IMG/VR virus record: IMGVR_UViG_3300049638_000482
Strand: one strand, 5' to 3'
Source of the DNA: a virus
Taxonomy: Duplodnaviria; Heunggongvirae; Uroviricota; Caudoviricetes
Length of the DNA stretch: 26,457 nt
Shown: in pieces, positions 171 to 26,456 of the stretch
Layout: every line of letters begins with the position of its first letter
How positions within the stretch are numbered: position 1 is the stretch's first letter
Program-made: the position numbers and the translations under genes
Notes under the pieces: generated by a model
What the model was told of the DNA's origin: nothing
The model's input: the letters and a program-made list of their open reading frames with translations, nothing else
Databases searched by the model: none

Positions 171-485
171 GATGGCGAAGAGGTAGAGGACGAGGCTTCC
201 TCAGCGGGTATTCCTGAGACGTGCCAAGAGAGAACCATTCATGATGTGGAGAAGCCCGTTTCGCTTCACCACAAGGTTCAGAAGTCTAAGAAGCCCGCAG
301 TTCACCACTCAGCACCTCGCCCCTCAGGGTATTTCGCACCGTCAGTGCCCTTGTATGATTTCATTCTTAACAACGGTGGCTCGATGCTTATCGAGGACGT
401 CAGGAAGTATTATCCTATTGACGAAGTTAAGAAAGCTTTGAGCTTGGGTAAAATTTATCGTTTCGGTAATCACGTAGGAGTTTGA
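3..485 (+). CDS. 5'-truncated protein with acidic tandem repeats and a small C-terminal globular domain
   Basis: Frame 3 is open from position 3 (LPDDEDEEGYSVLPDDEDEEEDSS...) and runs into track ORF 246..485; TGA at 483-485. Confidence 0.8.
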   Translation, partial: LPDDEDEEGYSVLPDDEDEEEDSSVLPDDEDEEEDSSVLPDDEDEEEDSSVLPDDGDGEEVEDEASSAGIPETCQERTIHDVEKPVSLHHKVQKSKKPAVHHSAPRPSGYFAPSVPLYDFILNNGGSMLIEDVRKYYPIDEVKKALSLGKIYRFGNHVGV

Positions 486-489
486 TTTC

Positions 490-2088
490 ATGGGTCGTCG
501 TAAGGTTGTAAGTGTTTATCGTGGTCGCTATAAGGGTGATTATCTTACCGAGGCTGATTGCGACAAGCTTGAGTCCATTCGTGAGGCATACGAGGACGGG
601 GTATTCTTCGGTGATTTGAAAGGCTACCTGTATGATATTCCCAAGAGCGATATTGAGAATATTAAGTATCTGGCTTCCTCTGATGACCTTAAAGAACGCC
701 CGAAGGGTGAGTTGACCGATTCGCAGACGGTTATGCTCGCTTTCGGTTTGGTCAGCAAGAAGTGGCTGTGTGGTGATAGCGTCGGTTTGGGTAAGACCGC
801 TTTGATGGCGGCAACCTATAACTACCTTAAGGCTCATCGTGGTGATAAGGCGCCCAGGATGCTGTTTTTGGTCGATGGCGAGGACGTCATGAACCAGAAC
901 TGCGACCAGCTCATTCGTTTCACAGCGGATTACTTCATGTCCGTAACTGGCAGAAAGCAATCAGCTCAAGACCTTGTGGATTTTTATCTGGAGCGCGGGT
1001 ATTTGCCAAATGTGGTGGGTACGCATAGCCTTCTGCGCCAGCCGGTATTCCAAGAGTTGGTGTCTAACTACATCCGCAGCACCGGTAAAGACCCCTTCGG
1101 CATCGTAGTAATTGATGAGTCCGCCGTGCTTGGTAATAGCAACACACAGGTGTACAAGCAGGCTCAAAGTCTGTTTTCCGAAGTCGAATATCGTATCTGC
1201 CTGAACGCCACCGAGTTCGATGTCAAGCTTGAGGAGTTCTATAATCAGCTGAACTGGGTGGACCCGACATTGCTTCCAACCCGCACTCAATTCAAGAAAG
1301 ACTACTACGTGATGGAATGGAGCCCGTGGGCAGGGTATTCCAAGCCTTCTGGCAAGTATAAGAACGCCGAAGACTTCCGTAATAAGGTCGGTTATCGGTA
1401 TCTGGCTCGCACTCGTAAGGACTTGGGAGCAACCATGAAGGATTGCTCCGCTGAAATTGTTGAGGTGCCTACTAACGATTATCAGAAGACATTGCTTAGG
1501 GAAACTTCCATGGCGGGCATGGCTTTGAACTGCCCTTGGGCAATCGACCGTAACGCCACTATGGACGAGGAGTTCTGCCCCAAGCTTAAGACCCTGTTGA
1601 ATATCCTCGATAATGACCTTGGTTACTCTGACAGCGTGGATATTCCGCAGGTGCTCATCTACGCTCATTACAAGGAGGCCCAGGCGGGTATTGTTGCACT
1701 GCTGGATGCTTGTAATATCTCCAATCGGGTATTGAATGGCGACACGCCCAGTGAGGAGCGTCACGAGATAGTCGAAGGGTTCAAGGATAATAAGTTTAGC
1801 GTGCTTATCACCAATGTGCAGCGCGGTTTGAATTTCGGAAACTGCAATTTCGTCATCTTCTACCAGTTCCCCAGTGTTGGTAGGGCTGTGCAGTTTGAGG
1901 GTCGTATTACCCGTCAGGAGAATATTGTTGGTAAGCATGTGTATGTGTTGTTGTCTGCGCCTAAGGAGTTGAAGCGGTTTAAGACGTTGTTGGCTGACCG
2001 TGCCAAGGCGTTGAATGCGTTTGCCAGCACGGATTACAGTATGCTTCTTGGCTTGCTCCTCAAGAATCAAGATAGCGTGGAAGACTAA
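490..2088 (+). CDS. SNF2-family (superfamily 2) helicase/ATPase
   Basis: GDSVGLGKT (motif I), VVIDES (II), ICLNAT (III), LITNVQRGLNF (V), QFEGRITR (VI); AGGAG upstream. Confidence 0.85.
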   Translation: MGRRKVVSVYRGRYKGDYLTEADCDKLESIREAYEDGVFFGDLKGYLYDIPKSDIENIKYLASSDDLKERPKGELTDSQTVMLAFGLVSKKWLCGDSVGLGKTALMAATYNYLKAHRGDKAPRMLFLVDGEDVMNQNCDQLIRFTADYFMSVTGRKQSAQDLVDFYLERGYLPNVVGTHSLLRQPVFQELVSNYIRSTGKDPFGIVVIDESAVLGNSNTQVYKQAQSLFSEVEYRICLNATEFDVKLEEFYNQLNWVDPTLLPTRTQFKKDYYVMEWSPWAGYSKPSGKYKNAEDFRNKVGYRYLARTRKDLGATMKDCSAEIVEVPTNDYQKTLLRETSMAGMALNCPWAIDRNATMDEEFCPKLKTLLNILDNDLGYSDSVDIPQVLIYAHYKEAQAGIVALLDACNISNRVLNGDTPSEERHEIVEGFKDNKFSVLITNVQRGLNFGNCNFVIFYQFPSVGRAVQFEGRITRQENIVGKHVYVLLSAPKELKRFKTLLADRAKALNAFASTDYSMLLGLLLKNQDSVED

Positions 2089-2142
2089 TCATCTGAGGGG
2101 CAGGCAAGGGGACTAGGGAAGGTGTGGAGGCGCATTGTAGCG

Positions 2143-2622
2143 ATGGAAAAGTTGCCGGATTCACGGGCCTTGCACTCCCGGACGGTCTCGTATGTGATGG
2201 GAGTTTTGGCACCTACCCTCGGACTCGATCCACATGAGGCAGCGTTGTGCGGATGGCTCCACGACTTTGCGTATTGTTTTTCAGACAACTCCCATCATGC
2301 GCATGATGGGGGAGAAATGCTGCGGGAACAAGGCTACAGCCATTGGAAAGAAATCTTCGACCACGGCACAGTGCAAGGGCTTTCCACGCCCTTGGGGGTG
2401 TTGCTCAACACGGCTGACATGGCGGTCGACTCCCACGGCAATATCGTCGGTTTCACAAAACGGCTCAGCGATGTCGCCGCACGATACGGCGTCGACTCTC
2501 CCCAATACAGGGGTTGTGCCCAGGAAATCGAGGCAATCAAGGCTTCGGAAGAATGGAAACTTCTCGCAAAGCCATTGGGGGGCTTTCTCTCGCAAGATCA
2601 GGATGTGGCTGGTTCCTCATAA
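2143..2622 (+). CDS. HD-superfamily metal-dependent phosphohydrolase
   Basis: ALHSRTV...GWLHDFAY...HHAHDG...DHG...NTAD pattern; GGAGG at 2126-2130 favours ATG 2143 (GTG 2122 possible). Confidence 0.75.
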   Translation: MEKLPDSRALHSRTVSYVMGVLAPTLGLDPHEAALCGWLHDFAYCFSDNSHHAHDGGEMLREQGYSHWKEIFDHGTVQGLSTPLGVLLNTADMAVDSHGNIVGFTKRLSDVAARYGVDSPQYRGCAQEIEAIKASEEWKLLAKPLGGFLSQDQDVAGSS

Positions 2623-2777
2623 ACCAAGCGCAGGCGGTTTGTAGCTTAATTTTTCCGACGTAATACCGCTTGAAGAGCGGGGTCTGGAACGAGACTCCCA
2701 CCCGGGTATTAGTAAGCGACTCTCGGGGTATTTCAATTTCTGCTAATATTGAATGAGCATAGTGTAGGAGGCTGTTA

Positions 2778-3863: not shown

Positions 3864-3997
3864 TGCCCTCTCTGGGTATTCGATGATTTCTTGTTTTTAA
3901 TGAGTTTGTCAAGGTCTGCTGTTCGTTTCGGCGTTCGCTAACTTGCGATTTTTCTTGGTTTGCTTTAGTCATGTGTATGGCGGGCGTTTTGAAGCTG

Positions 3998-4006
3998 TGT
4001 TATACT
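3998..4006 (+). promoter_or_regulatory. Extended -10 promoter element (TGT-TATACT)
   Basis: TGn plus a TATAAT-like hexamer in the AT-rich gap 29 nt before the topoisomerase B start. Confidence 0.45.
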
Positions 4007-4034
4007 GGGCTTAGGTTCGTTAGAAAGGTTCTCC

Positions 4035-6182
4035 ATGTCTGAAATTGACTCTAATTATGGTAATGATTCCATTGAGTACAAGGGCGAGATTGATGGCGTT
4101 CGTACCCGCCCCGAATCGCTTCTCGGTTCCAAGGATCTGGATGGTGCTAAGCATACGGTCATCGAGATGATTGGCAATTCTCTCGATGAAAAGAACTCCG
4201 GTTATGGCGACAAGCTCGTCGTGACTTGGTTCGGAGATGGCAGGGTCGCCGTCCGTGACTATGGTAGGGGTATTCCTCTGGGTTATAATGAGTCTCAGGG
4301 TCGGTACAACTGGGAGCTCATTTACATGAAGCTCTATGCGGGCGGTAAGTATACCGATTTCTCCCCGCTCAAGAAGCTGACACCTGCGGACTGGGATGCT
4401 ATCAACTATAATAATTATGGGGAGTATCTCGCCAATCTGGGTATTAACTACCTGTTTTCGGTCGGTTTGAATGGTCTTGGTAGTGCGGCAACCAGCGCAA
4501 CCTCCCGTACTTTCTTGGTTAAGTCCTTCCGCGATGGAGAAGAAAGCTCCATGCTGTTCAAGGAGGGTCAGCCCGTTTACGATGAGCTTAAGGTCAAGCC
4601 CACTGATGAGCCTACAGGTACATATGTCGAATGGCAGCCTGACCCCTCGGTGTTTACGGATGCATTCATCCCCAAGAAGTGGCTGAAAGAGCTGTGCCGC
4701 AAATTCTCCTACTCTGCGGGTATTACAGTCGACTTCGTCGATGAGAAGGGCGAAGTCACCACTTACAAGGCTTCTAACGTCAATAACATGCTTGCCGAGC
4801 AGGTTGAAAATGGCTTTAGTGAGGACGGCTCCATCAACCCTCTCGCCGTGGAAATCGAGAAGGGTTTGTACCATGATGCCGAGGTGACGAAGCGCACTGC
4901 TGAGGGCAATGAGTATGAGATGGGCGTCATGGTCTATGACTTGGCTATCGGCGGCAATCCCAAGGGCAATATCAAGAGTCAGTTCTTCGTCAATAATGTT
5001 TCTGTCCGTGGCGGCACTCCAGAGGAGGGCTTCCGTGATGCGGTTAGTGGCTTCTTCAATGAGCAAGCCCGGGAGCGGGGTATTAAGCTTCGCCCGGTCG
5101 ATTTCGAGGGTCGCGTGGTCATCACGGCTAGTATCCTTGCTAATCTGACTAACTACCGTAATCAGACCAAGGATGAGGTCGGCAACCAGTACATCTATGA
5201 CGGTATCAATCAAGCGGTTATGAAGATGCTTCGCCATGCTTACATGGTGGATGCCCCGTGGTTGAAGGAAGCTCTCAAGGCTGCATTTGATAACTACGAG
5301 GCGCGTACACTTGCTGAGCAAATGCGCGTTCAGTCCCGTGAGGTTAAGAAGGCGGTCAGCCGTCAGGTCAGTTCCCGCAAGTTCCAGCCTTGCCGCACTT
5401 ATGGCAAGAAGGGCAAGGAGGCGGCAACTGAGCTGTGGATTGTCGAGGGCGATTCGGCAGGTGACCACCTTTTGAATAGCCGCGATTCCGATTATCAGGC
5501 TCTGTACTATCTGCGTGGCAAGGGTCGCAACCCGTTGAAGAGCAATGCCGCCGAGGTGCTGTCCTCCAATAGGGAAATCAGCGATATCCTCAGCATCATC
5601 GGTATGGGCAATAAGCTGACCGGTGATGAGGACGTGTCGAAGTCGAAGATTGGCAAAGTTATCATCGCCTCCGATGCTGACCGTGATGGCTACCATATTC
5701 GTATGCTGACATTCCTTATTATGTGGGTCTACGTGCCTGACCTCCTGTATAAGGGTATGGTTTATGTGGCTGAGCCTCCGCTGTGGCGTGTGGATCTTCA
5801 GAACGGTGAGAAGCGTTTCTACATCACCGACGAAGAGTACAACAAAGACCGCGACTACATCAACAGCGTGGGTATTAAAGGCAAGCCCCATCGTTACAAG
5901 GGTCTGGGTCAGATGGAGGAGGAGGACCTCTCGGAGGTTGTGATGAATCCTAAGAACCGCGTCCTCCATCAGGTCAAGATTGACCGTACCGATGACAGCA
6001 TTGATAAGTATCTTGCCATGCTGTTCGGTAGCTCCACCACCGACCGCCGTGAGGGTATTCTTAAGGGTGCCCTTGGCGAGGAGGGTCTTGCGGAGCGTTA
6101 TGATGAGATGCAGAAGCGTGCTGATGCTCTCCGTGGGTATCAGGTTGAGGATGATATTGATGAAGAGCTGATTGCCCTCTGA
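4035..6182 (+). CDS. gyrB: Type IIA DNA topoisomerase subunit B (GyrB/ParE family)
   Basis: GHKL motifs EMIGNSLDE, DYGRGIP, GLNGLG; TOPRIM motifs IVEGDSAG, LRGK, SDADRDGYHI; RYKGLGQM. Gyrase versus Topo IV not resolved. Confidence 0.95.
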   Translation: MSEIDSNYGNDSIEYKGEIDGVRTRPESLLGSKDLDGAKHTVIEMIGNSLDEKNSGYGDKLVVTWFGDGRVAVRDYGRGIPLGYNESQGRYNWELIYMKLYAGGKYTDFSPLKKLTPADWDAINYNNYGEYLANLGINYLFSVGLNGLGSAATSATSRTFLVKSFRDGEESSMLFKEGQPVYDELKVKPTDEPTGTYVEWQPDPSVFTDAFIPKKWLKELCRKFSYSAGITVDFVDEKGEVTTYKASNVNNMLAEQVENGFSEDGSINPLAVEIEKGLYHDAEVTKRTAEGNEYEMGVMVYDLAIGGNPKGNIKSQFFVNNVSVRGGTPEEGFRDAVSGFFNEQARERGIKLRPVDFEGRVVITASILANLTNYRNQTKDEVGNQYIYDGINQAVMKMLRHAYMVDAPWLKEALKAAFDNYEARTLAEQMRVQSREVKKAVSRQVSSRKFQPCRTYGKKGKEAATELWIVEGDSAGDHLLNSRDSDYQALYYLRGKGRNPLKSNAAEVLSSNREISDILSIIGMGNKLTGDEDVSKSKIGKVIIASDADRDGYHIRMLTFLIMWVYVPDLLYKGMVYVAEPPLWRVDLQNGEKRFYITDEEYNKDRDYINSVGIKGKPHRYKGLGQMEEEDLSEVVMNPKNRVLHQVKIDRTDDSIDKYLAMLFGSSTTDRREGILKGALGEEGLAERYDEMQKRADALRGYQVEDDIDEELIAL

Positions 6183-6189
6183 GTTAGGG

Positions 6190-6224
6190 AAGGGCGGGGA
6201 TTCCGTTATGGAATCCCCGCCCTT
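6190..6224 (+). terminator. Perfect 15-bp stem-loop after topoisomerase B
   Basis: AAGGGCGGGGATTCC-GTTAT-GGAATCCCCGCCCTT; weak U-tract, so terminator or RNA-stabilising hairpin. Confidence 0.65.
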
Positions 6225-6245
6225 ATCGTCGTTTTAAGGATTGTT

Positions 6246-7121
6246 ATGTCTGAAAAGAACAGCAAGACGCCTCAGAAGGCTACCCGAGAGGGTATTGAGA
6301 AGACTACCGGGAGGGGTGCCAAGAAGGGCACCCGAGGGGGTATTAAAGGGGCTTATAAGAAGACCGCTAAGAAGGAGGACTCCCAGTCCGTTGGGAAGAA
6401 GTCCTCCAAGAAGGTGGGTTCTCAGTCCTCCGAGAAGTATTCTAAGAACCCCAACTTTTTCTCTCGTCTGCATAATGCCATGCTCATGGGTTTTATCCGT
6501 CTGTCGAATCCTGTGGAAACGCCTACGGATAATGCTGTCATCGATGAGGCTAAGAAGAATAAGGGCCTCAGCCGGGTATTGAATACCCCACTCGTCGGCA
6601 GGGTTGTTATTTTGTTGGTAACGGTGCTTACTGTGCTTGCCATTCTTCAAGCCAGCCTGTTCTCCTCCGCCGCGCTTAAGAACCATAAGATTATGATTGA
6701 AGAGCGTGCTAAGAACGTGTATTCTTTGCAGTCTGTTCAGTCTATTCAGGATACCAATCAGTATGGTGAAATTGGTGATACTGTGACCACTTATCTTGGT
6801 GACAAGGGTAATATCGCTAATGTGTATCCAGGTGTTCGATCTGACCGAGGTAAGTACGGCCTCGGGTATTACTACTCTGCGGGTAGCGGTCTGCTCAGGC
6901 CGTCTTCTTTCAAGGAAGTTTGGAATGGATCAGGTCTGGGTGGCACGTTCGCTTCCATCCTGTGGGTGCTGATGCTAATCCTGTTGTTGGGTTCGAAGCG
7001 TTGGTTCAAGGGTTCTAAGTTCGATGTTAAGAGCCGTAGATGGCTTTGGCTTCTCCAGATAATCAATGGTGTGTTGATCGTAATATTTTGGGTGCAATTT
7101 ATTACACCGTTGGTTGCGTAG
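6246..7121 (+). CDS. Hypothetical membrane protein with Lys-rich N-terminus and about 3 TM segments
   Basis: K/G/T-rich first 70 aa; hydrophobic VVILLVTVLTVLAIL, FASILWVLMLILLL, WLWLLQIINGVLIVIFW; AAGGA upstream. Confidence 0.75.
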   Translation: MSEKNSKTPQKATREGIEKTTGRGAKKGTRGGIKGAYKKTAKKEDSQSVGKKSSKKVGSQSSEKYSKNPNFFSRLHNAMLMGFIRLSNPVETPTDNAVIDEAKKNKGLSRVLNTPLVGRVVILLVTVLTVLAILQASLFSSAALKNHKIMIEERAKNVYSLQSVQSIQDTNQYGEIGDTVTTYLGDKGNIANVYPGVRSDRGKYGLGYYYSAGSGLLRPSSFKEVWNGSGLGGTFASILWVLMLILLLGSKRWFKGSKFDVKSRRWLWLLQIINGVLIVIFWVQFITPLVA

Positions 7122-7169: not shown

Positions 7170-9512
7170 ATGGCTAATATTAACGACGAGTTCGAAGAGC
7201 TTTTCGAGGATGGCAGCGAGGTTGATGACACCTTGAGCAGCGTCGATATCGACGAAGGTGACATCACCGCTCTGGCTCATCTTTACAAGGGCAATTCCGA
7301 GGGCTTCAAGTCACTGGCAGAGGGGTATTCAGCCTACTCGTTTGAAACGATGCAGAACCGTTCTCTTCCAGACGTTCGCGATGGTCTGAAGCCGGTTCAG
7401 CGTCGTATCATCTACGCGATGTACCTCAACAAGAAGAAGTTCGCTCAAGAGAATGGCTCTCTTGAGCTGGTCGGTGCGGTTTATCCCATGCATCCGCACG
7501 GTGATAGCTCCATCTATAGTGCCGCTGTGCGAATGACCGATAAGAACGGTTCCTTCATGGTACCTCTGCTGTCTGGCGGTGGTAACGTTGGTACGGTTGT
7601 GCAGCCGGGTAAGGAAGCCGCTCCGCGTTATTCGAAGATGTGGGCGCATAAGAATGATTACGATTTCCTTCGCGATATGGACGGCGCTTTCTGGAAGCCC
7701 GCAGAGGCAGATGAGTCCAAGATGGAGCCCGCGTATCTGCCCGTCAGGTATCCTTTCGTGCTGTGCAACCCCGCCATGGGTATTGCCGTCGGCATGAATA
7801 CCAATATCCCGGCATACAATTTCTTTGACGTGGTGAATCTCACCATCAAGTATCTTAAGGGTGAGGACATCACCCATGAGGTGCTTTGCCCTGATTTTCC
7901 GACCGGCGGTTTCGTGCTCAAGAACGATGAGGAGTTCTTGAAGATTCTAAACCTAGGTCATGGTCAGGTGCGTATTCGTGCCCGTGTGGAGATCTCTCCC
8001 AAGGGTGATGATATTGAGGTTCTCGAGATTCCATACGGCAAGACCCGTGAAAGCATTATCGATTCCATCAACCGTATCATTGCCCCTCCGAAGGATGTTG
8101 ATGTTCAGCCGATTCCGGGGCTTAAGGCGGTTAATAACTATACGCAGTACAAGAGCAATAACATTTCCATCTCTTGTGCTCGTGGAACGGCTGAGACAGT
8201 TCTCCTCCATCTCTACAAGCGGGGTATTCTTCAGACCAACTTCAGTGCCCGCCTGAATGTGGTTAACGGTAATCAGCCCATTATCGGTGGCATCCCCGAA
8301 ATTCTGGAGGCTTGGTATCAAGCCCGTGAAAGGGTGATGGCTAAGGTATTCCACAATGAAATCGAGGGATACAAGCAGGCTTATATTCAGTACAGCTACT
8401 TCCTTCGCCTCGTGATGAACGAGGAGTGGAAGGATGAGTACCTTCGCCGTATCACCAAGGTGTCCACGGCTTCGGCTGATGAGTACCTCAAGGGTATTTT
8501 CGAGGATATCCCCGAAGATGTGGTCAAGTGGATTCATGATCGTCGTGCTGCGGAGTTCAATAAGGGCGGAAAGTACAAGGATGCTCTGGACAACACCAGG
8601 AGTGCTCTTGAAGAGGCCAAGTACAATTCCGAGCATATCAAGGAATATGTTATCAAGGATCTAGAATCCCTTAAGAAAGAGCACGCTGGCGAGTTCCCAC
8701 GTATCTCTGAGCTGACTACCAAGGACTATAAGTTCGTCAAGGCCTCTGATATCAAGAGTGAAGACGCCGAGGAAGTAGAAGAAGCCCCGGCTTGGTTCAC
8801 CGTAACCAAGGAAGGTCTGCTCTATAAGACCCGCGACCAGCTGGCTCTGAGTGATATCGTATTCCAGGAGTGCATCTCTGGTTCCTCCACGCTCATCGGC
8901 TTTGATATTTATGGACGTATTCTGCGGTTCTTTGGAGAGCAGGTACCTGTGTCCAATAGCGCGGTCAACCTGACTGAGTACTTCGATGTTCCAGCCGAAT
9001 ACCGCGTTGCTACTCCTCAGCACCCTGCATGGGGTATTCCTTACATGACCGAACTTGACGGCAAGAAGCGCTATATCCTGTATACCAATGGTAAGCTTTC
9101 CATTCTGGATACTGCCAAGTATATCAATAAGGGCGCTCGCCGTCGTGTGGTCAATAATGGTATGCCCGCAGATGTTTATGAGAATCTGTTCGAAATCATC
9201 CACGAAGATGACATGCCCGAGACTATCATCGCCGTCGATAACGGTAAGTCTCGGTGCCGCGTGGGTTGGTTCAGCACCGAGGACATCCGTGAAACCGCTT
9301 CAGCGAAAGCCCAGGAAAGGGTATTGGGCGGTGCAGCCAATCTGTATGCGTGGCATGGAGCCACCGACGAGGAGCTGTCCGAACTGTTCGGCGGTACGGA
9401 AAATGAGTATCAGGACCGAGTCAAGGGCACTAGTGACGAGGACATGCTGGAGCGGGTTGCTGGCGCATGTGATTATGGTTCGTTCGTGCGCGACGCGTTC
9501 GTGGGCGCGTAG
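7170..9512 (+). CDS. gyrA: Type IIA DNA topoisomerase subunit A (GyrA/ParC family)
   Basis: RSLPDVRDGLKPVQRRIIYAM, HPHGDSSIY, AAPRY (catalytic Tyr, codon 7629-7631), GIAVGMNTNIP, PDFPTGG; degenerate beta-pinwheel-like C-terminus. Confidence 0.95.
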   Translation: MANINDEFEELFEDGSEVDDTLSSVDIDEGDITALAHLYKGNSEGFKSLAEGYSAYSFETMQNRSLPDVRDGLKPVQRRIIYAMYLNKKKFAQENGSLELVGAVYPMHPHGDSSIYSAAVRMTDKNGSFMVPLLSGGGNVGTVVQPGKEAAPRYSKMWAHKNDYDFLRDMDGAFWKPAEADESKMEPAYLPVRYPFVLCNPAMGIAVGMNTNIPAYNFFDVVNLTIKYLKGEDITHEVLCPDFPTGGFVLKNDEEFLKILNLGHGQVRIRARVEISPKGDDIEVLEIPYGKTRESIIDSINRIIAPPKDVDVQPIPGLKAVNNYTQYKSNNISISCARGTAETVLLHLYKRGILQTNFSARLNVVNGNQPIIGGIPEILEAWYQARERVMAKVFHNEIEGYKQAYIQYSYFLRLVMNEEWKDEYLRRITKVSTASADEYLKGIFEDIPEDVVKWIHDRRAAEFNKGGKYKDALDNTRSALEEAKYNSEHIKEYVIKDLESLKKEHAGEFPRISELTTKDYKFVKASDIKSEDAEEVEEAPAWFTVTKEGLLYKTRDQLALSDIVFQECISGSSTLIGFDIYGRILRFFGEQVPVSNSAVNLTEYFDVPAEYRVATPQHPAWGIPYMTELDGKKRYILYTNGKLSILDTAKYINKGARRRVVNNGMPADVYENLFEIIHEDDMPETIIAVDNGKSRCRVGWFSTEDIRETASAKAQERVLGGAANLYAWHGATDEELSELFGGTENEYQDRVKGTSDEDMLERVAGACDYGSFVRDAFVGA

Positions 9513-10250: not shown

Positions 10251-10279
10251 TTAAGTAGAGATAGTTTAGGAGTGTGTCT

Positions 10280-17350: not shown

Positions 17351-17388
17351 AACAAGCCCACCGTCTTGTGAAAGCGGTGGGCTTGTTT
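17351..17388 (+). terminator. Rho-independent terminator
   Basis: AACAAGCCCACCG-N11-CGGTGGGCTTGTT, 13-bp perfect stem ending in TTT. Confidence 0.75.
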
Positions 17389-17453
17389 CATGAAAGGGGA
17401 GTTGGGGAGGCGTGCGGGAGAGTCGAGGAGGAATAGTGCAATCTATTCAGAGA

Positions 17454-17462: not shown

Positions 17463-17594
17463 CCCTTGGGAAGCCGGGTATTATTTATGGCGCGTTTCCA
17501 TTCGTGCCGCCTAGCAGCTCAATCAGGGTATTTTTGATTAGGCATCTTTAGAAACTATCTCTAAAGATGGTGTAGGATAGTAAGGTGAGTTCGT

Positions 17595-17975
17595 GTGGTC
17601 GATACAAGTTCGGAAAGGATATTGAAGTTGATGACATTCAGCCAAATCATAGAGTCTATGGGCAAGAATAATACTTATCATATCAACGAGAACCTTGACG
17701 TATGCACCACTGGTGGGGAAAACAATAAAAGATTTTTCCGTGTCAAGTGGGAGACGCTTAATTATCTGACGCCTCAGGACTATCTCAGGGCGCTTCATAA
17801 GGCCAATATCAAGGGTTATGAGGTTTGGAAGACCACCCACCATTCAATGGATTTCCCTTTTACCGAAGAAGGGTATGAGAAAGCCGTAACGTATGTAGGT
17901 GTTGTGGAGCATCATAACCTCTTGGTGCGCAAGTTCTATCAGGAGTTCTGTAAGCTTAATATCCAGGCAGTCTGA
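17595..17975 (+). CDS. Hypothetical protein (AT-richer; start uncertain, GTG 17595 or ATG 17631)
   Basis: 126-aa open frame; composition differs from the core genes. Confidence 0.6.
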   Translation: MVDTSSERILKLMTFSQIIESMGKNNTYHINENLDVCTTGGENNKRFFRVKWETLNYLTPQDYLRALHKANIKGYEVWKTTHHSMDFPFTEEGYEKAVTYVGVVEHHNLLVRKFYQEFCKLNIQAV

Positions 17976-18938: not shown

Positions 18939-19559
18939 ATGACAATGGATAGGCTAACAGTCCGCGAATTCCTTAAGTGGGCTTCCGGCAATTCTCAACC
19001 CAAGGAGGGCGTGGGTATTTACAAGGGCTTGCCCATTACGGTGAGGTCTTTCTATCAGCGTGCCTTGGTGAAGAACGGCATCGTCGATGACCACTATAAA
19101 GGCGGCGAGAAGCGTCTCATGCTGTGCCCCTTGCATGGCGACGAGAAGCCCTCAATGGGTACGATAATCGATAGTGACGGCCTCGAAATCTTCAATTGCT
19201 TCGGTTGTAAGAGAGCTGGTACGGTTGAGGATTTGGCTCACGGTGTTGAAGTTAAGCTACACCGAAAGTTCTATAATACCCCCTTGGAGTGGGTTGTTCG
19301 CTCATGCAGTGGCGACCTCGGGTATTCAGAAATGCTTCGCTTCGAGGCCGCAGCACAGAAAGAGTCCCACGAGGAAGCCTCCCTCGGGTATTCACCTTCC
19401 GATGCTGCAATCCTTAAGAGCGTTAATACCGGGTCATCATTAAGAAAAAGTGATATAGTCGAGGAATACGCATCTTTGGCGGAAGACCTTCGTAAGAATA
19501 AAGTTTTGGATTTGAACGCTTTGCAGCGTACTTTCATTGCCAGTTTTCTGGCTGTTTAG
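18939..19559 (+). CDS. Stand-alone CHC2 (DnaG primase-type) zinc-finger protein
   Basis: LCPLHGDEKPS...FNCFGCKRAG; no TOPRIM catalytic motifs in the ORF. Confidence 0.8.
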   Translation: MTMDRLTVREFLKWASGNSQPKEGVGIYKGLPITVRSFYQRALVKNGIVDDHYKGGEKRLMLCPLHGDEKPSMGTIIDSDGLEIFNCFGCKRAGTVEDLAHGVEVKLHRKFYNTPLEWVVRSCSGDLGYSEMLRFEAAAQKESHEEASLGYSPSDAAILKSVNTGSSLRKSDIVEEYASLAEDLRKNKVLDLNALQRTFIASFLAV

Positions 19560-19925: not shown

Positions 19926-19933
19926 CATTGTAA

Positions 19934-20899
19934 ATGGTGGTCGTGATGGATTCTATCTCCTCTGTCAGTATCAATACGCCTCTTCTGTCTAATGATGAGG
20001 TCGTTGTCGGTCTTGATATTTCCACGGTCAGTACAGGTGTGGCTGTGCTTTCGAACCAGGGTATTAAAGTGGCGAACATTGATGTGTCCCACGCCGCTTC
20101 TAAGAATGATGTCTTTGAGACCATCAAGCGCCGACTTTCCTTAGAGAAGCAGCTCTCTGATATGCTGGATGGTTTGGGTATTAAGTGGCTTGTCGTTGAG
20201 GACGTTTTTATGGGCACTAATGCCACCACATATAAGGAGCTTGTGAATCTTAATAATGTCCCCGACGAGCTGCTTGTCAAGGGCATTCTTCGCACCACGC
20301 AGCCTATCGAAGACGTTTTAGTCAGGGTTCAAAGTCGCGTTTGGAAGTCTTGGATTCGACCCAAGATTCAGGACCAGGGTGGAATTATTCATGATGGCGG
20401 GCGCTATTTGTCTGATAAGCAGGTTGTCCGTCAGAGCCTATCGGCATGGGGTATTAACCCTGATTCTTTGGGTGGCGGCAAAGGCAACCAAGACCGGTGC
20501 GATGCCTTCGGAATGGCTTTCGGGTTGATTATCAACAAGGAAGATTCCGAGGGGGAGAGCGGCAGAGACGGGGAGGCTGAAGGCGGAGATGGCGCTCGCG
20601 AGGGCACCGAAAGTCCTCTGTCTGCTTTTGAGATGTGGTATCAGAAGGACTTGAAGGATGACCCTTCGTTCAAGGACGCTCTCCACGGTCGCCAAGAGAC
20701 GGTTCTGAGTAAAGTAGAGTTCAACCGTGTGGTTACTCAGGGCTATGACTCTTTCAAGAAATGGCTCGATGATACAGCCACGGACGCCTCCCGGGTATTC
20801 ATCGTACCCAATGCCAGTCTCGGTGCTCTTGGTAAGAAGCTTGGTTTTTCAGTGGTGTGGGGCGGAGCCGATTTCGCGTTCTGCCGCAAAGGACGGTGA
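19934..20899 (+). CDS. RuvC-like Holliday junction resolvase with C-terminal extension
   Basis: VVGLDISTVSTGVAVL, LVVEDVF, VWKSWI, DRCDAFGMA match the RuvC/RNase H catalytic D, E, D..D layout. Confidence 0.8.
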   Translation: MVVVMDSISSVSINTPLLSNDEVVVGLDISTVSTGVAVLSNQGIKVANIDVSHAASKNDVFETIKRRLSLEKQLSDMLDGLGIKWLVVEDVFMGTNATTYKELVNLNNVPDELLVKGILRTTQPIEDVLVRVQSRVWKSWIRPKIQDQGGIIHDGGRYLSDKQVVRQSLSAWGINPDSLGGGKGNQDRCDAFGMAFGLIINKEDSEGESGRDGEAEGGDGAREGTESPLSAFEMWYQKDLKDDPSFKDALHGRQETVLSKVEFNRVVTQGYDSFKKWLDDTATDASRVFIVPNASLGALGKKLGFSVVWGGADFAFCRKGR

Positions 20900-20904
20900 T
20901 TATT

Positions 20905-21507
20905 ATGGGTTTCTTCAGTAATCTTTGGAGTGGCGCCGGAGCGGGCATTGGTTATAGTCTAAGTAACCATATCATGAACCACTTCAATAAAGGCCAAAAT
21001 CAGCAACAGCAGGAAGGTCAAGGAATGCAAGGTCAGATTGTTCCGAGTCAAGGTCAGCAGGTGCCGCAGATACCGATGAGCGGCTACCCACAGCAGGTCA
21101 TGCCAATGGGAGGTCAGATGCCTATGGAAGGTCAGATGTACCCTCAGCCCGTGGCCGGTCAGATGTACCTTCAGCCCGTGGCCGGTCAGATGTATCCTCA
21201 GCAGCAAATGATGCCTATGATGGGTTATCAGCCGAAGAGAGTCACTGATAGAGATGCCCTGACGCTGATTCAGCTGGCAGTACCGGGTATTCAGGTTTTG
21301 GATTGTGAGTACATCGATGACTGCCCTCCGTACTTCACTCATATCTGCGGCTCCAGAACCATGCGTGAAGACCCCATCTGCCAAATTCCTCCTAACATCG
21401 TTAATGTTCAGAATGTTGATGGCGTGATGTATGCCATCCCGGTATTCTATTGCGGAAGGTGCCACGAGTTGGTTATTTATGCTGGAGCCTACCGCGACGT
21501 GTACTGA
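20905..21507 (+). CDS. Q/P/M/G-rich low-complexity protein with C-terminal Cys-rich domain
   Basis: MGFFSNLWSGAGAGIG start; GQMYPQPVA repeats; C-terminal C..C..C..C..CGRC. Confidence 0.75.
   Translation: MGFFSNLWSGAGAGIGYSLSNHIMNHFNKGQNQQQQEGQGMQGQIVPSQGQQVPQIPMSGYPQQVMPMGGQMPMEGQMYPQPVAGQMYLQPVAGQMYPQQQMMPMMGYQPKRVTDRDALTLIQLAVPGIQVLDCEYIDDCPPYFTHICGSRTMREDPICQIPPNIVNVQNVDGVMYAIPVFYCGRCHELVIYAGAYRDVY
21130..21202 (+). repeat. 27-bp coding tandem repeat (GQMYPQPVA), about 2.7 units
   Basis: GGTCAGATGTACC(C/T)TCAGCCCGTGGCC at 21130 and 21157, partial at 21184. Confidence 0.9.
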
Positions 21508-21511
21508 TATG

Positions 21512-21520
21512 TGGTAAGAT
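21512..21520 (+). promoter_or_regulatory. Extended -10 promoter element (TGG-TAAGAT)
   Basis: Upstream of the AAGGAG RBS of the ligase gene. Confidence 0.45.
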
Positions 21521-21560
21521 ATAACTAGTCCCGGTTTTAGCATAGTAAGGAGCAGTAGAG

Positions 21561-22979
21561 TTGGCTAATTTGCAGTATGTGCTTGATAATGTCCTCGACA
21601 CGGATAATATGCCTTCTGATGTCGCTAATGAGCTTGAGGAGCTTGTCAGCGAGTGCAACGTGGCGTATGCGAAGGGCGAGCCTATCGTCGAGGATTCAGT
21701 CTATGATTACCTTAAGGACAAGTTGCAGCAGGTCATGCCTGACAGCCCCCTGCTGAACGAGACCTACGAGGAGACCGCTCAGGAGGTGGAAGACGCGCAG
21801 GAGGGAGCGGAAAGTGCTGAGGGTGCGGAAGGCGCGGACGATGAGGCCTCCTCGGGTATTCAGTCTCAGGACTCTTCTCGTCCTGACCCCAGGGGGTATT
21901 TCTCCGCCGTAGGCAAGTGGGGTAACCTCCTTGAGGAGCACCCTATGATGTCTATCCAGACCATCAAGTCCTTCAATGATTCTGAGTTCTGGGATTTCAT
22001 CAACATTCTCGATCCTAACGGTGATTCCGTCTTTTGCAGCTATAAGATTAACGGTCACGGTATTCGTCTCGTGTATAACGATGGTGATTTGGTTTCCGCC
22101 ACTTCCAGGGCGCGTCGTGGTCGTGGTAGCGATATTCTTGACAAGGTAAGCCAAGTGGTGCCCACCCATAATCCCGACCTTGAGGGTCTTGGCGAGGTTG
22201 AGATTCGTGGTGAGCTGTGCCTCCCTCTGGCTAATCTTAACAAGGCGCGTGAGTATAATCCTGATATTAAGTCGGCTTTCAGCGCCGTGTCCTCGCTCCT
22301 TGGAGCTGATAGCGGTGAGTATGTTAAGCTGCTCGATTTGTTGTCGTATAATGTTTTTACCCAAGATGGCTTAATCTTCGATAAGAAAAGTGATGAGTAC
22401 GATTGGTTGGCTAATCATGGGTTCAAGACGCCCGAATGTGCAATTGTCGAGTTCTCCGCTGAAGATCTTTCTTCAGGCGCTAAGGTACTGGAAGCATTCA
22501 AGGAAGTGCTGAGTTCGTTTGAGGAATCTTATGACGATTTCGGGTATTTCTGTGATGGTCTCGTGGTGCAAGTCGACGACAATGCGCGTTTCGCGGAATT
22601 AGGCGATGATGGGGTTCGTAATTTCGGCAACATTGCATTGAAAGTCGGTCTGTGGAAGCAGGAAGGCTATGTGGGTCGCGTCGTAAGGATTGAATGGACC
22701 AAGGGAATGTCCAAGATGTCCCCAGTTGCCATCGTCGAGGACCCTGATAACCCAGGTTCTGGGCAGGGGGTATTGGTTGCGCAAGGTAATCGCCCGAGTC
22801 GTGTCCCTCTGTATGAGCCGGCTAATATCCTTGTGCTGGGCGTTCAGCCGGGTAGTATGCTGCATTTCAATTATGGTGGCGAGAGTGCTGTGGTGCCGAC
22901 CGATGAAAGCGGTCGCCCGTTGAAGAACACATCGGCTACCGAGCGTTTCAATAAGTGGCTTGAGAACAACGTTGATTAG
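21561..22979 (+). CDS. ligA: NAD+-dependent DNA ligase-like protein (domain Ia, adenylation and OB domains; no Zn finger, HhH or BRCT)
   Basis: TTG start after AAGGAG; AY..GEPIVEDSVYDYL, HPMMSI, YKING, EIRGE, DGLVVQ, IALK, IEW...SPVA. Several motifs are atypical. Confidence 0.8.
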   Translation: MANLQYVLDNVLDTDNMPSDVANELEELVSECNVAYAKGEPIVEDSVYDYLKDKLQQVMPDSPLLNETYEETAQEVEDAQEGAESAEGAEGADDEASSGIQSQDSSRPDPRGYFSAVGKWGNLLEEHPMMSIQTIKSFNDSEFWDFINILDPNGDSVFCSYKINGHGIRLVYNDGDLVSATSRARRGRGSDILDKVSQVVPTHNPDLEGLGEVEIRGELCLPLANLNKAREYNPDIKSAFSAVSSLLGADSGEYVKLLDLLSYNVFTQDGLIFDKKSDEYDWLANHGFKTPECAIVEFSAEDLSSGAKVLEAFKEVLSSFEESYDDFGYFCDGLVVQVDDNARFAELGDDGVRNFGNIALKVGLWKQEGYVGRVVRIEWTKGMSKMSPVAIVEDPDNPGSGQGVLVAQGNRPSRVPLYEPANILVLGVQPGSMLHFNYGGESAVVPTDESGRPLKNTSATERFNKWLENNVD

Positions 22980-22989
22980 CAGGGTAAAT

Positions 22990-23030
22990 TCAAGGGGCGG
23001 CACCGTCGTGGGAGCGATGCCGCCCCTTGA
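22990..23030 (+). terminator. GC-rich stem-loop after the ligase gene
   Basis: TCAAGGGGCGGCA...TGCCGCCCCTTGA, 13-bp perfect stem; no clear U-tract. Confidence 0.6.
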
Positions 23031-23101
23031 TGCTACCCACGGGTATTATGCCATGTCAGGGTTGGTTGGTGTTTTAGTGTCGTTTTGAAAGGGCGCGTGC
23101 T

Positions 23102-24994
23102 ATGGTTGCAGACGGTTTTGAAGACCAGCAGTCGGAGGAGTCTGCGTCGGATGAGTTTTCCGGCGTTGATGATGACGTTCAGGACTTCTCGGAGAGCGGG
23201 TATTGGAACTCAGACGAGAACTCGGATGATGACGGTGATGACGGTCAGGACGGTCTTCTCCCCACTGATGACGATGAGGACTTCGAGGAGGGTTCTGAGG
23301 GGAATAGTGATGACGGTTTTCTCCCCGCAGATGATGACGAGGACGAAGACGGAGATGACGGTCTTCTCCCCGCTGATGACGATTCCGACGAGTATGAGGA
23401 CTCGGGTATTCTCCCCGATGATGAAAGCGTGGATATCTCGGACAGTCTCGCTTCCGATGGCACCGAGTCCGTGGCTGATGAGGGTGAGGATGAGGTTGAT
23501 TCCGATGTAGCCGATCCTAAGATGGGAGCAGTCAGTGAGGGTGGGGGTATTCAGGGAGCTGACGATTCTAACGCAGCCTTGAACTCCTCCGACAGCATTG
23601 AAGCCGCTATCCATGAAATGTCCGGTGGCTTCGAGATTCATAGTGGCATGGTGTATATTCCAGGCGACGTGGTTCTTCTCGAGTATGTTAAGAACTCTCG
23701 TAAAGAGACTCACATGGGTCTTACGCAGTCGATTAAGGAAGAGGGTCAGCTCCAGCCGATAACAGTGGTTGAGACTGCGGCATATGCCAAGTTTAAGGAG
23801 ACTAACCCTGAGGGGGTATTCACAGGTCGCAAGTACATCCTTGTTGATGGTCTTCGTAGAATGTATTCCATGGTCGCTCTGAGGTATGAGCAGGCTCAGG
23901 CTAATATTTTGACGTTTGAGCATCCTGAGAAGGCTGCCTCGGTCATCCCCCTGTTGCGCTGTTTGTATAATAAGGCTGAGCGTATGTCATGGCCTGAGCT
24001 CTGGGGGTATTTGAGGGTTCTTGACGAGTCTTACACTCTTGCTCCTAATATTGAGGAGTATTTGCTTGGACTTGATGGCGGCGATATCATGAAGCTCAAG
24101 GATATCATGGCTAATCAAGACAAATACCCCGACATTGTGGATAACCTCTTCTCTAAGAAGAAGACGCTCGACCAGTCTTACAGTGCTCTTAACAAGGCGC
24201 GTAAGGAGGAAGATAAGCTCCGTATGGAGGACCAGTCGGGTATTAGCTCCATTGAGGAAGCCAAAGACATCATGGAGGATGACCAAGGTGGTCAGCAGGG
24301 TGATAAGCTGAGTGAAGATGATGTGCGTGATATCCTTGAGATGGCTTCTGATTCCTTGAGCGATGATGATTTCGCTGGTAAGGATGCTGGCTTTGATATG
24401 GCAATGACAAAAGAGGACTACGGAGCGCAAGACGTTCACGCAAGGCATCCTCTTGACCCCGCTGTTAAGCAGGCCGTGTTCCGTAGGGATAACTTCACTT
24501 GTTGCGTTTGCGGCTTGAGCGGTACGCCTTTCCTCAGTGCATTGGTGGTTCATCATATTCGTCCTGTCTTGGCTAATGGTGGAGATAACTTCGCATCCCC
24601 GGTATTCATTGAAAGGGAGAATGGAGACCTCGGCCTTAATCCAGACAACAATCTTATTACATTGTGTGAAACCGACCATATCACTGCCCACGCCATCCAG
24701 TTCCAGCTCGGTGGTAAAATCCCTATGACGAGGGAAGAGTACGAGGGGTATTCCGAAGAGAAGAAGGAGCACGTCAGAAGGCTCAAGCTTCTCGTTGATG
24801 TCCTCGTGCGTTGCGATAAGGCTCTTAAGAAGAATCGTAAGGCTAAGCTGCCCATGATTCAGCACGATAAGCCTTGGGATAGTAACGAGGTTGCCGGTGA
24901 TGCTGTTTTGGCTTATAACAGCAGGAAGCAAGGTGACGCCAAGCCAATGGTCGGCAAGTTGGTTGAAGAGGAAGGCGACTCTGATGAAGAGTAG
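23102..24994 (+). CDS. ParB/Srx-domain - HNH endonuclease fusion with long acidic N-terminus
   Basis: LTQSIKEEGQLQPITVV...LVDGLRR (ParB N-domain); VFRRDNFTCCVCG...VHHIRPVLANGGDN...NLITLCETDH (HNH); about 150 D/E-rich N-terminal residues. Confidence 0.85.
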   Translation: MVADGFEDQQSEESASDEFSGVDDDVQDFSESGYWNSDENSDDDGDDGQDGLLPTDDDEDFEEGSEGNSDDGFLPADDDEDEDGDDGLLPADDDSDEYEDSGILPDDESVDISDSLASDGTESVADEGEDEVDSDVADPKMGAVSEGGGIQGADDSNAALNSSDSIEAAIHEMSGGFEIHSGMVYIPGDVVLLEYVKNSRKETHMGLTQSIKEEGQLQPITVVETAAYAKFKETNPEGVFTGRKYILVDGLRRMYSMVALRYEQAQANILTFEHPEKAASVIPLLRCLYNKAERMSWPELWGYLRVLDESYTLAPNIEEYLLGLDGGDIMKLKDIMANQDKYPDIVDNLFSKKKTLDQSYSALNKARKEEDKLRMEDQSGISSIEEAKDIMEDDQGGQQGDKLSEDDVRDILEMASDSLSDDDFAGKDAGFDMAMTKEDYGAQDVHARHPLDPAVKQAVFRRDNFTCCVCGLSGTPFLSALVVHHIRPVLANGGDNFASPVFIERENGDLGLNPDNNLITLCETDHITAHAIQFQLGGKIPMTREEYEGYSEEKKEHVRRLKLLVDVLVRCDKALKKNRKAKLPMIQHDKPWDSNEVAGDAVLAYNSRKQGDAKPMVGKLVEEEGDSDEE

Positions 24995-25039
24995 TAACCC
25001 GAAGAGCATCAAGCATCTTGCAAGATAGGACAATATAAC

Positions 25040-25426
25040 ATGGAATCAACTCTGATAGAAGGCATCGACAAATCCTTCATACCGCCTCTCCTTCTTAATA
25101 TTCTGTTGTTCGTGGCTGTTGTGGTCGCCATCTCATTGGTGTGGTGGTTGCTTAAGAAGACTAGGATGCTTGTCAAGACGGTTGTGACCTTCATCCTCGT
25201 GGGTATTCTTTTTGGCGGTGTCCAGTTCAATAACTGGCAGGATTACAGGCATTTGGAGAACGCCTCCATTTCGATTAGCGGTCAAGTAATCCCAGTCCGG
25301 GGTATTGATGACATTGAGATTTCCGGCTCCCAAGCCAAGATAACCTACCACGGAACCACTTATACAATCCATGATAAGAGCGTCGTTGACGCTCTTCGCA
25401 ATTACAATCGGTTCGCAAAGAAGTAA
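25040..25426 (+). CDS. Small membrane protein (2 TM plus short beta-rich domain)
   Basis: LLLNILLFVAVVVAISLVWWLL and VVTFILVGILFGG. Confidence 0.75.
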   Translation: MESTLIEGIDKSFIPPLLLNILLFVAVVVAISLVWWLLKKTRMLVKTVVTFILVGILFGGVQFNNWQDYRHLENASISISGQVIPVRGIDDIEISGSQAKITYHGTTYTIHDKSVVDALRNYNRFAKK

Positions 25427-25444
25427 AGAAAAGGACGGTGCAAG

Positions 25445-26200
25445 ATGGACGAAGAAACAAACGAAGAGTTGGGTAATGACGAGCTGACCGACCTTCAAGC
25501 CGATTTCGACGCCCTCGTCAAGAAGGAAAAGGAGGAGGGCGTTCCGCTGTCCGCTGAGTCCTTGCAGAAGGCCTTGGCTGACTGCACATACGCAGAACAG
25601 GCTGTGGTGAGCGCCGTTGTTGGGAATTACCTCACCTATGGCAGCAATTGGGTCATCTTGCCTAAGCTCACCAAGGATATTGAAGAGCTGGTCTCCGACC
25701 TCACCCACGCGGGTATTTGCAAGTTGTGGAAGTTTACCTTCGGCGGCGTGTTGGAGGTTTCCCCTAAGTGGCTCAATAAGAAGCTGTCCTTCCTCGGAAC
25801 CAATACACTGAAAGAGGCTATCAAAAGGGCGAAATCCGACTGGTCTAAGGTTCAAGAGTACTTCTGCTCTGATGATACTCCTGATGAGGGCTATGTTATT
25901 TTCTGGGGTGTCACCAATGAGGACAAGATGAACCTTACAGATAGCGCCGATGATAAGGATGACATTCCTTGCTTTAATGTGAGTATGCAGGCTTTGCGAG
26001 CGCAGTTGTTGAAGGTTGGATACGAGTTGTGCGACCTCAACCAGTGTGGCATGCTCCCTCAGGCTCAGGGTATTCTTGCGCTTTATTGGAAAGCTGACAA
26101 GGATTATGGTGAGATGCCCGAAGAGGAGCAGGAGTCCATCATCCAGGGTATTCGCGATGCAGTAACCTTCGATATCAACGACGTGGATCTCGAGCTGTAA
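25445..26200 (+). CDS. Hypothetical acidic protein
   Basis: AAGGA upstream; core codon usage; TAA at 26198-26200. Confidence 0.8.
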   Translation: MDEETNEELGNDELTDLQADFDALVKKEKEEGVPLSAESLQKALADCTYAEQAVVSAVVGNYLTYGSNWVILPKLTKDIEELVSDLTHAGICKLWKFTFGGVLEVSPKWLNKKLSFLGTNTLKEAIKRAKSDWSKVQEYFCSDDTPDEGYVIFWGVTNEDKMNLTDSADDKDDIPCFNVSMQALRAQLLKVGYELCDLNQCGMLPQAQGILALYWKADKDYGEMPEEEQESIIQGIRDAVTFDINDVDLEL

Positions 26201-26210
26201 GAAGGGTGGA

Positions 26211-26456
26211 ATGATGGCGAAAGAAGATGTGGTGTTCATCACAACGGACGAAATGCTCCGACCAGGATTCTGTGGCGTGGTACAGGGGAAAGTGCTAGGA
26301 GGTGCCGATGAGGGCGGTATGCAGGGCGCCACGAAAGGGATGGTCACTTATGACATGACCAGGGACGCTAAGCTGTCCAGTGGTGCCCTTATGAAGTTCC
26401 CTAAGGGGTTTGTAAAGACCTACAAGGAAGGGGACTCCCTCTGGGTATTTTCACCG
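26211..26456 (+). CDS. 3'-truncated hypothetical protein (MMAKEDVVFITTDEMLRPG...)
   Basis: GGGTGG upstream; frame open to the window end; absent from the ORF track because there is no stop. Confidence 0.6.
   Translation, partial: MMAKEDVVFITTDEMLRPGFCGVVQGKVLGGADEGGMQGATKGMVTYDMTRDAKLSSGALMKFPKGFVKTYKEGDSLWVFSP

Follow-up and report, generated by a model that had tools for sequence, protein, structure and literature searches.

A dense, strand-polar heptamer in a pXO16-like giant mobile element and its possible role as a primase start site

A stretch of 26,457 bases (one strand) from the IMG/VR virus record IMGVR_UViG_3300049638_000482, here called the window, is punctuated by the heptamer GGGTATT. 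An exact search found 86 copies, of which 83 are on the strand that carries all of the genes (the + strand) and 3 are on the opposite (−) strand. Judging from its genes, the window is the replication module of a giant conjugative element of the pXO16 family and not part of a phage. We favor the reading, at a probability of roughly 0.4, that a split DnaG/T7-type primase encoded by the element recognizes GGGTATT (family core, GGGTA) in its template and starts synthesis there.

The word in the window and across the pXO16 family

The initial annotation of this DNA had reported about 83 and 3 copies on the two strands, even spacing with gaps of up to 0.8 to 1 kb, sharp edges, and copies in all three reading frames as well as at eight intergenic positions, and it had argued that coding does not explain them; all of these claims held up. 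Dinucleotide shuffles of the window contained a total of 2.69 ± 1.62 copies (maximum, 7), and GGGTATT is by a wide margin the commonest 7-mer of the window. The + copies run from 206 to 26449 (first, 206-212; last, 26443-26449) with a mean spacing of 320 nucleotides (nt), and all three − copies are at 6582-6588, 19275-19281, and 24123-24129. The coefficient of variation (CV) of the gaps was 0.60, versus 0.99 under random placement (P < 5e-5), and the largest gap was 977 nt (P = 0.006). The boundaries of the word are sharp: HGGTATT and GGGTATV occur 8 and 5 times, respectively, all 21 single-base variants are at chance level (0 to 5 copies each versus about 2 expected), and the flanking bases are close to the background composition. 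Where the heptamer leaves gaps in the window, GGGTA sites without the final TT do not make up for them; the functional word here is the full 7-mer and not GGGTA alone.

Genes contain 75 of the + copies, divided 48, 16, and 11 among the three frames. Shuffling synonymous codons within each gene yielded 8.5 ± 2.6 genic copies, shuffling the codon order yielded 3.0, and a dicodon-preserving shuffle, which retains most of GGGTATT by construction, yielded 34 ± 4. Gly-Ile pairs are written GGT-ATT in 49 of 64 cases, 48 of which are preceded by a G, and Gly-Ile and Gly-Tyr are 1.8 and 1.7 times as frequent in the window as its amino acid composition predicts; both codon choice and protein sequence have thus been shaped by the word. 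The other eight copies (starting at 2704, 2726, 3874, 16581, 17476, 17526, 17986, and 23041 on the + strand) fall within the 5% of the window that is noncoding, at twice the genic density, and every one of the six intergenic spacers of at least 95 nt that were inspected holds at least one copy. Stretches of pXO16 that are free of open reading frames (ORFs) carry the plasmid's version of the word 10 times forward and never in reverse in 6 kb, and the intergenic density of the word in pXO16 is four times the genic density. A 4.4-kb portion of this 6 kb, with a GC skew of only 0.04, has 8 to 9 forward copies and none in reverse, equal to the plasmid average density. In the ORF-free stretches of G001, a 140-kb relative, GGGTA occurs 21 times forward and 4 times in reverse in 3.9 kb. 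The word is independent of coding and of GC skew.

Four metagenomic relatives with topoisomerase identities of 95, 70, 55, and 43% to the window (GC contents of 46 to 54%) carry GGGTATT 66/0, 35/0, 73/2, and 76/1 times on the two strands, respectively, at the same density as in the window. L001, with 86.7% nucleotide identity to the window, preserves 44 of 47 sites, compared with a 37% survival of random 7-mers; three sites were lost and three were gained. At third codon positions where the amino acid is unchanged relative to the closest relative, identity was 44 of 44 inside the word and 81% outside it (P = 2e-4). The sites are under purifying selection. About half of them are at the same codon at 70% protein identity and almost none at 45%. 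Each 2-kb gene nevertheless retains 4 to 8 copies, and because this number is steady while positions turn over, density and spacing, and not particular sites, are what is selected. Even spacing was also found in the four relatives (CV, 0.57 to 0.71) and in pXO16 (CV, 0.62 to 0.71).

Over a broader range of relatives, the conserved part of the word is its GGGTA core, which is enriched 2.3- to 4.1-fold with strand ratios of 6 to 38 in nine family elements with GC contents of 32 to 54%, three of which had been picked solely for encoding the primase catalytic protein described below. Distant members share only this pentamer: G001 (an IMG/VR record; GC content, 32%), L086, and the three elements picked by the catalytic gene. 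The flanks differ by clade, with the window's clade adding TT and pXO16 using (A)GGGGTA(G/T). Another pentamer, TGGTA, is enriched about twofold in L101, L102, and L103 but is raised in phage T7 as well; we give it no interpretation.

The relation to pXO16 was found through the topoisomerase A subunit of the window, whose best plasmid matches were ten 350-kb pXO16-type records of Bacillus thuringiensis. Protein identity between the window and pXO16 is only about 30%. The gene order of pXO16 (FtsK/SpoIIIE-like, one gene, SNF2/DEAD helicase, topoisomerase II B, A, DnaB-like, and CHC2) matches that of the window and of L001 to L003 and L084, and all genes have one orientation in the window, in G001, and in the whole of pXO16. 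Of the tip-type T4SS transfer locus, which would lie upstream of the window, the FtsK-like gene was seen in relatives. A phage identity was rejected: no near match to the window is present among 50,697 phage records, protein matches were below 31% identity, and the backbone is that of pXO16. This conjugative plasmid, with all of its coding sequences (CDS) in one orientation, transfers single-stranded DNA (PMC6199540). Its relaxase and oriT are described as unidentified in reviews (PMC6199540, PMC9673590), and it mobilizes plasmids that lack an oriT as well as 791 kb or more of chromosome (PMC9673590).

On the complete pXO16 circle, GGGGTA occurs 657 times forward and 5 times in reverse. Each 10-kb bin holds 12 to 27 forward copies and has a positive GC skew, the polarity does not switch anywhere on the circle, and the largest gap is 2.07 kb. 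Because the polarity is uniform, the process that reads the word runs one way round the whole molecule. In G001, genes, word, and GC skew (about 0.3) are all on one strand in every 5-kb bin; the minority-strand ORFs carry the majority-strand skew and look spurious, and no natural inversion was found among the opposite-strand genes of this record. Mapping orientation genome-wide had been proposed initially as a way to tell a signal that follows the gene strand from one that switches at ori/ter. The maps of pXO16 and G001 gave uniform polarity, and the two possibilities are not separable in this family. The accompanying remark that DNA polarity and mRNA polarity are inseparable also stands, since no relative examined departs from a single gene orientation, the complete 350-kb pXO16 circle included.

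Host DNA shows no such bias. In co-resident plasmids of the same B. thuringiensis strain (360, 235, and 128 kb), the pXO16 word occurs 55/54, 15/21, and 19/15 times on the two strands, and in a 5.5-Mb Bacillus chromosome it occurs 501/512 times, less often than a reversed control word. This comparison of element and host was made in the pXO16 background only. Given the unbiased host DNA and a core that is constant across GC contents of 32 to 54%, the reader of the word is probably encoded by the element and not by the host. The initial description of the word as an element-specific cis signal agrees with this absence of host bias, in the one background covered, with the large shortfall of the dicodon-preserving shuffle, and with the conservation of synonymous sites among relatives. 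A literature search that did not extend to the two primary pXO16 papers turned up no description of the word.

Candidate readers of the word

The candidate reader is a stand-alone DnaG-type CHC2 zinc-binding-domain protein (PF01807; 18945 to 19559, +), which has 204 to 216 amino acids (aa) and no TOPRIM domain. The window protein matches the zinc domain of the Geobacillus stearothermophilus DnaG primase (1D0Q), and the protein is present in the window, L003, L084, G001, and pXO16; its structure model has a pLDDT of 82. G001 and pXO16 have a separate primase catalytic protein of 252 to 275 aa (DNAG_N plus TOPRIM), whose gene is over 100 kb away from that of the zinc finger, and from these two elements we infer its presence in the window's own element. 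In pXO16 (NZ_CP013277.1), the CHC2 gene is at 33.7-34.3 kb and the catalytic protein is a 275-aa frame around 162.5 kb. The catalytic protein falls into 212 clusters at identities of at least 47%, on contigs of up to 274 kb, and the zinc-finger protein diverges fast, with only eight relatives found. A conserved catalytic protein with a fast-evolving zinc-finger partner parallels a constant GGGTA core with clade-specific flanks. Genes for a family-A polymerase, a flap nuclease (FEN), and a single-stranded DNA-binding protein (SSB) are likewise present in family members, and a search of two records, pXO16 and G001, turned up no Pol III alpha. The pXO16 family carries a T7-like replisome kit of family-A polymerase, DnaB-like helicase, FEN, SSB, ligase-like protein, and split primase. 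The DnaB-like replicative helicase of the window (10274 to 11998, +) was considered as a fused primase-helicase and rejected; its N-terminal half has no primase domain and lacks TOPRIM motifs.

The window has a GC skew of +0.07 to +0.19 with the word on the G-rich strand, and by the usual skew rule the G-rich strand is the lagging-strand template. GGGTA shares its TA ending with the sites at which Firmicute DnaG primases begin. We infer that the primase reads the word, which strand is its template, and what primer it makes, as follows. The G-rich + strand, which carries all genes, would serve as lagging-strand template for a fork that advances in the direction of transcription, and it may in addition be the strand that enters the recipient cell single stranded; the helicase would travel 5′ to 3′ along it. 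The zinc finger would read the 3′ portion of the word (A; in the window's clade, ATT) as uncopied "cryptic" bases, and the catalytic subunit would begin opposite T and make pppACCC, like T7 primase at GGGTC. On a template with GGGTC, T7 primase makes the primer ACCC (pppACCC) and leaves the 3′ C uncopied, and its zinc domain provides the sequence specificity (PMC9198812). By chance, a base composition like this one would give a 7-base site only about every 10 kb on each strand, or about 2.5 copies on the + strand of the window. The word would be kept dense and even because a 5- to 7-nt requirement would otherwise leave long unprimed single strands; selection would thus maintain an even supply of sites, with no gap above about 1 kb, at the cost of codon choice and some amino acids. 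The transfer of single-stranded DNA by pXO16 (PMC6199540) also counts in favor of a primase site. Among the functions listed in the initial annotation, a primase start site now has the best circumstantial support, a motor cue has lost ground for lack of a gamma domain in the FtsK-like ATPase, and the strict polarity of the 7-mer makes ParB loading unlikely.

Several observations weigh against a primase start site. The link from primase to word is circumstantial. The T7 genome contains GGGTC 39 and 55 times on its two strands, against expectations of 38 and 32, so its primase sites are neither enriched nor polar, and known primases therefore do not imprint a genome in this way. Bacterial Okazaki spacing does not call for sites as dense as one per 320 nt. 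Neither the window nor the 22-kb loci of its close relatives yielded the catalytic primase gene. A Foldseek search of the PDB with the zinc-finger model gave no significant match, and no helicase-binding domain was found in it. A complex prediction for the zinc-finger and catalytic proteins of G001 scored 0.04, which we list here although it is evidence neither way. Finally, the co-orientation of all genes in every element leaves room for a reading at the transcript level or on the non-template strand, and a quarter of the sites in pXO16 double as Shine-Dalgarno sequences.

A wider proposal, which we hold to be improbable, is that the word is a self-address for replication and transfer, its roughly 1,000 dispersed copies replacing a single oriT and relaxase and a single single-strand origin. 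The copies would be read by the zinc-finger primase module and possibly also by a transfer motor, and an entering or displaced single strand would be recognized as self and made duplex from many points. If true, this would explain the missing oriT and relaxase of pXO16, its mobilization of oriT-less DNA that has chance copies, and the coevolution of word specificity and genome content (a 5-mer in some clades and a 7-mer here).

The word could instead serve DNA transfer, as a loading or orientation signal dispersed over the element. Its reader would be the FtsK/SpoIIIE-like coupling ATPase or a different motor, for instance the adjacent SNF2 helicase, in the manner of KOPS and FtsK or of the 8-bp TRS/clt repeats of Streptomyces TraB; export would start anywhere and always run one way. 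The FtsK_SpoIIIE gene lies 1 to 3 kb upstream of the equivalent of the window start in all relatives and in pXO16, and the uniform polarity round the pXO16 circle fits such a signal. Chance 6-mer copies, which occur every 3 to 6 kb or so per strand in Bacillus DNA, could account for the mobilization of oriT-less plasmids and of at least 791 kb of chromosome by a plasmid without an identified relaxase or oriT (PMC9673590). The ATPase itself, however, has no gamma domain (PF09397 was unmatched at E values of ≤0.5) and ends in a variable acidic tail, and the word is 10 to 30 times denser than KOPS. We know of no sequence-guided coupling protein for a pCW3-like type IV secretion system (T4SS); it is through such a system that pXO16 is reported to move single-stranded DNA (PMC6199540). 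Together, these points make a transfer signal unlikely.

We also regard as doubtful a signal in transcription or at the RNA level, in which a factor of the element (an RfaH/ops-type antiterminator, an RNA-binding protector, or the ribosome) recognizes the word, as GGGUAUU in the mRNA or as GGGTATT in the non-template strand, to sustain very long co-directional transcription units. Genes, and hence words, are all on the sense strand in every element, and GGGGTAG of pXO16 matches six of the seven bases at positions 2 to 8 of ops. Ops-type signals, however, act once per operon and not every 300 nt, and the sites are mostly inside genes and not in operon leaders, which counts against RfaH/ops-type antitermination. 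A search for a NusG paralogue (NGN domain) gave only a subthreshold match in pXO16 and none in G001. The word persists at normal density in ORF-free DNA, and one copy follows a strong terminator-like hairpin (about 17365 to 17400). This copy, at 17476, may lie in untranscribed DNA; it belongs to a pair (17476 to 17532, +; sequence read directly) located 3′ of the hairpin and 5′ of the gene at 17595. A promoter and terminator scan did no better than shuffles.

For the ribosome as reader, the two elements give different pictures. In pXO16, 20 of 78 copies precede a start codon by 4 to 9 nt and can pair with the anti-Shine-Dalgarno sequence, which we interpret as the word serving a second purpose at places that required a G-rich sequence in any case. 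In the window, the heptamer pairs poorly with the anti-Shine-Dalgarno sequence, and none of the eight intergenic copies is at ribosome-binding distance. The pair at 2704 to 2732 (+), for example, occupies a 155-nt spacer that precedes the gene with its start at 2778; its members are 22 nt apart from each other and 52 and 74 nt from the start codon. As a separate observation on pXO16 positions 1829 to 43718 (L094), about 28% of the genes there use AGGGGTA as a Shine-Dalgarno sequence and about an equal number use GGAGG; on the gene strand of this segment, TA comes after 78 of the 115 occurrences of GGGG.

A Chi-like or self-marking signal, which would attenuate a helicase-nuclease (AddAB/RecBCD of the host or a RecD/SbcCD-type enzyme of the element) or mark self, and so protect linear or rolling-circle intermediates, seems quite improbable. 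The word has the look of such a signal, being short, polar, and G-rich on the G-rich strand; Firmicute Chi sites are 5 to 7 nt long, and relatives encode an 1,100-aa RecD/UvrD-like helicase and an SbcCD-like pair beside the primase gene. Chi varies between genera, though, whereas the core is constant over GC contents of 32 to 54%, presumably in different hosts, and the pXO16 word is not enriched in the Bacillus chromosome or in co-resident plasmids. Nor does Chi need even spacing, and to our knowledge no Chi site approaches this density. Least probable, and indeed very unlikely, is a strand-specific nicking or base-modification site, like the one-strand nicks of phage T5, at which the ParB-HNH protein would nick and the ligase-like protein reseal: both proteins are encoded in the window and HNH nickases with asymmetric sites exist, but the need for such dense, even nick sites is unexplained and some 1,000 nicks per element would fragment the transferred single strand.

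Other genes and features of the family

The window encodes, all on the + strand, an SNF2-family helicase (490 to 2088), which in all relatives lies two genes 3′ of the FtsK-like coupling ATPase; the B (4035-6182) and A (7170-9512) subunits of a type II topoisomerase, the latter being the marker used for finding relatives, with an ORF of unassigned function between them (6246-7121); the DnaB-like helicase; two cell wall hydrolases; the CHC2 protein; a RuvC-like nuclease (19934-20899) followed by another ORF of unassigned function (20857-21507); an NAD-ligase adenylation-domain homologue (21561-22979); and a 630-aa fusion of a ParB-like N-terminal domain with an HNH nuclease (23102 to 24994), a weaker candidate for the reader or a nickase. 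The DnaB-like helicase starts with an acidic low-complexity tail of about 90 residues (window positions 10274-10570), whose length is very variable among relatives in the alignment.

Window positions 3-485 are the C-terminal part of the protein encoded directly after the FtsK-like ATPase. This protein has 385 to 441 aa, is complete in L002 (3227-4384) and L003 (2991-4199), and has an N-terminal ribbon-helix-helix-like match (DUF6290; E value of 0.001, below the Pfam cutoff); from this match, it could be a relaxosome component. The FtsK-like ATPases (L002, 870-3215; L003, 303-2972; G001, 38348-40597) have long, variable acidic C-terminal tails that end in a short conserved acidic-aromatic motif (D/E-rich, then W-D/G) resembling a protein-docking peptide.

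Directly 3′ of the stand-alone primase catalytic gene of pXO16 is a 4.4-kb ORF-free region (NZ_CP013277.1, 162884-167266; L112, 2884-7266), with a GC skew of 0.04 and about a dozen related hairpin-forming repeat units of the CATAGA...TGTATG type. The region is a candidate for the replication origin, a single-strand initiation region, or the oriT of pXO16. In L101 (2240-5557), L102 (6354-9770), and L103 (6402-9791), the primase catalytic gene and a gene for an HD-domain protein adjoin that of an 1,100-aa RecD/TraA-like helicase (AAA_30, AAA_19, and UvrD_C_2), the N-terminal third of which is unassigned. Helicase modules of the RecD/TraA type are often part of conjugative relaxases.

Relatives also carry cargo. 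An IS605-family TnpB gene (OrfB_IS605, Cas12f-like) is inserted in the 95%-identical relative L001 (21268-22343), where the replication genes of the window continue. Defense-like genes include a ZorA-like/MotA and OmpA-domain pair (Zorya-like; L103, 15003-18675) and a GmrSD_C nuclease (L084, 20804-21562).

Window DNA occurs in bioreactor sludge, with partial matches in sequencing runs from pig gut, bovine gut, and biogas digesters; a scan of species genomes with the SNF2 alignment gave no match. The IMG/VR label of G001 (IMGVR_UViG_3300045988_187936) is provirus, despite its pXO16-like backbone. A match to Monoglobus "plasmid 18" (L095, NZ_OY725742.1) was rejected as a family member and taken to be a piece of chromosome; this PLSDB record of Monoglobus pectinilyticus carries efp, glyA, queCDEF, and RNase J and looks like a chromosome fragment.

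Comparison with known systems

Genome-wide polar words such as Chi, KOPS, and uptake sequences are rare, and each has revealed a DNA-handling machine. GGGTATT is 10 to 30 times denser than these words, belongs to a mobile element, and is selected strongly enough to raise dipeptide frequencies. It defines a large, mostly uncultured family of 140- to 350-kb elements from animal-gut, sludge, and biogas-digester metagenomes, and it offers a simple marker for metagenomic fragments of these elements, which are now filed as viruses. The word is also present in pXO16, which is tractable in the laboratory; the word-bearing sequence named for priming and mobilization tests on this plasmid is AGGGGTAG. 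Identifying the reader would reveal either the cis site that is missing from pXO16-type transfer or a primase whose specificity is unusually long and doubles as a self-mark.

The nearest known system is pXO16 itself (B. thuringiensis serovar israelensis; 350 kb; tip locus), which is like the window in gene order, CDS orientation, and a polar word with the GGGTA core, and has a uniformly positive GC skew. It differs in using (A)GGGGTA(G/T) every 530 nt, whereas the window has GGGTATT every 320 nt.

The gene 4 primase of T7 recognizes GGGTC, TGGTC, and GTGTC and makes the primer pppACCC. Its site GGGTC resembles GGGTA in being 5 nt long and consisting of GGGT plus one 3′ base, which in T7 is uncopied; the site is read by a zinc domain on single-stranded DNA. 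In contrast to T7 sites, which are neither enriched nor polar, the word of the window is 7 nt long, 30-fold overrepresented, and evenly spaced, and the zinc and catalytic domains of the family are encoded by separate genes.

KOPS/SRS, read by FtsK/SpoIIIE, and the TRS of Streptomyces TraB are also short polar words spread over a whole replicon, and an FtsK-family ATPase gene is nearby here. KOPS polarity switches at the terminus (dif), whereas no switch was seen in the 10-kb bins of pXO16 or in G001, and the FtsK-like ATPase of the family lacks the gamma/winged-helix reader domain. The word is also far denser than KOPS and is specific to the element rather than to the host. Chi sites and DNA uptake sequences are likewise short, overrepresented words kept by selection across coding DNA. 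Those words, however, are shared with and defined by the host chromosome, which the pXO16 word, in its host background, is not, and uptake sequences are not strand polar as this word is.

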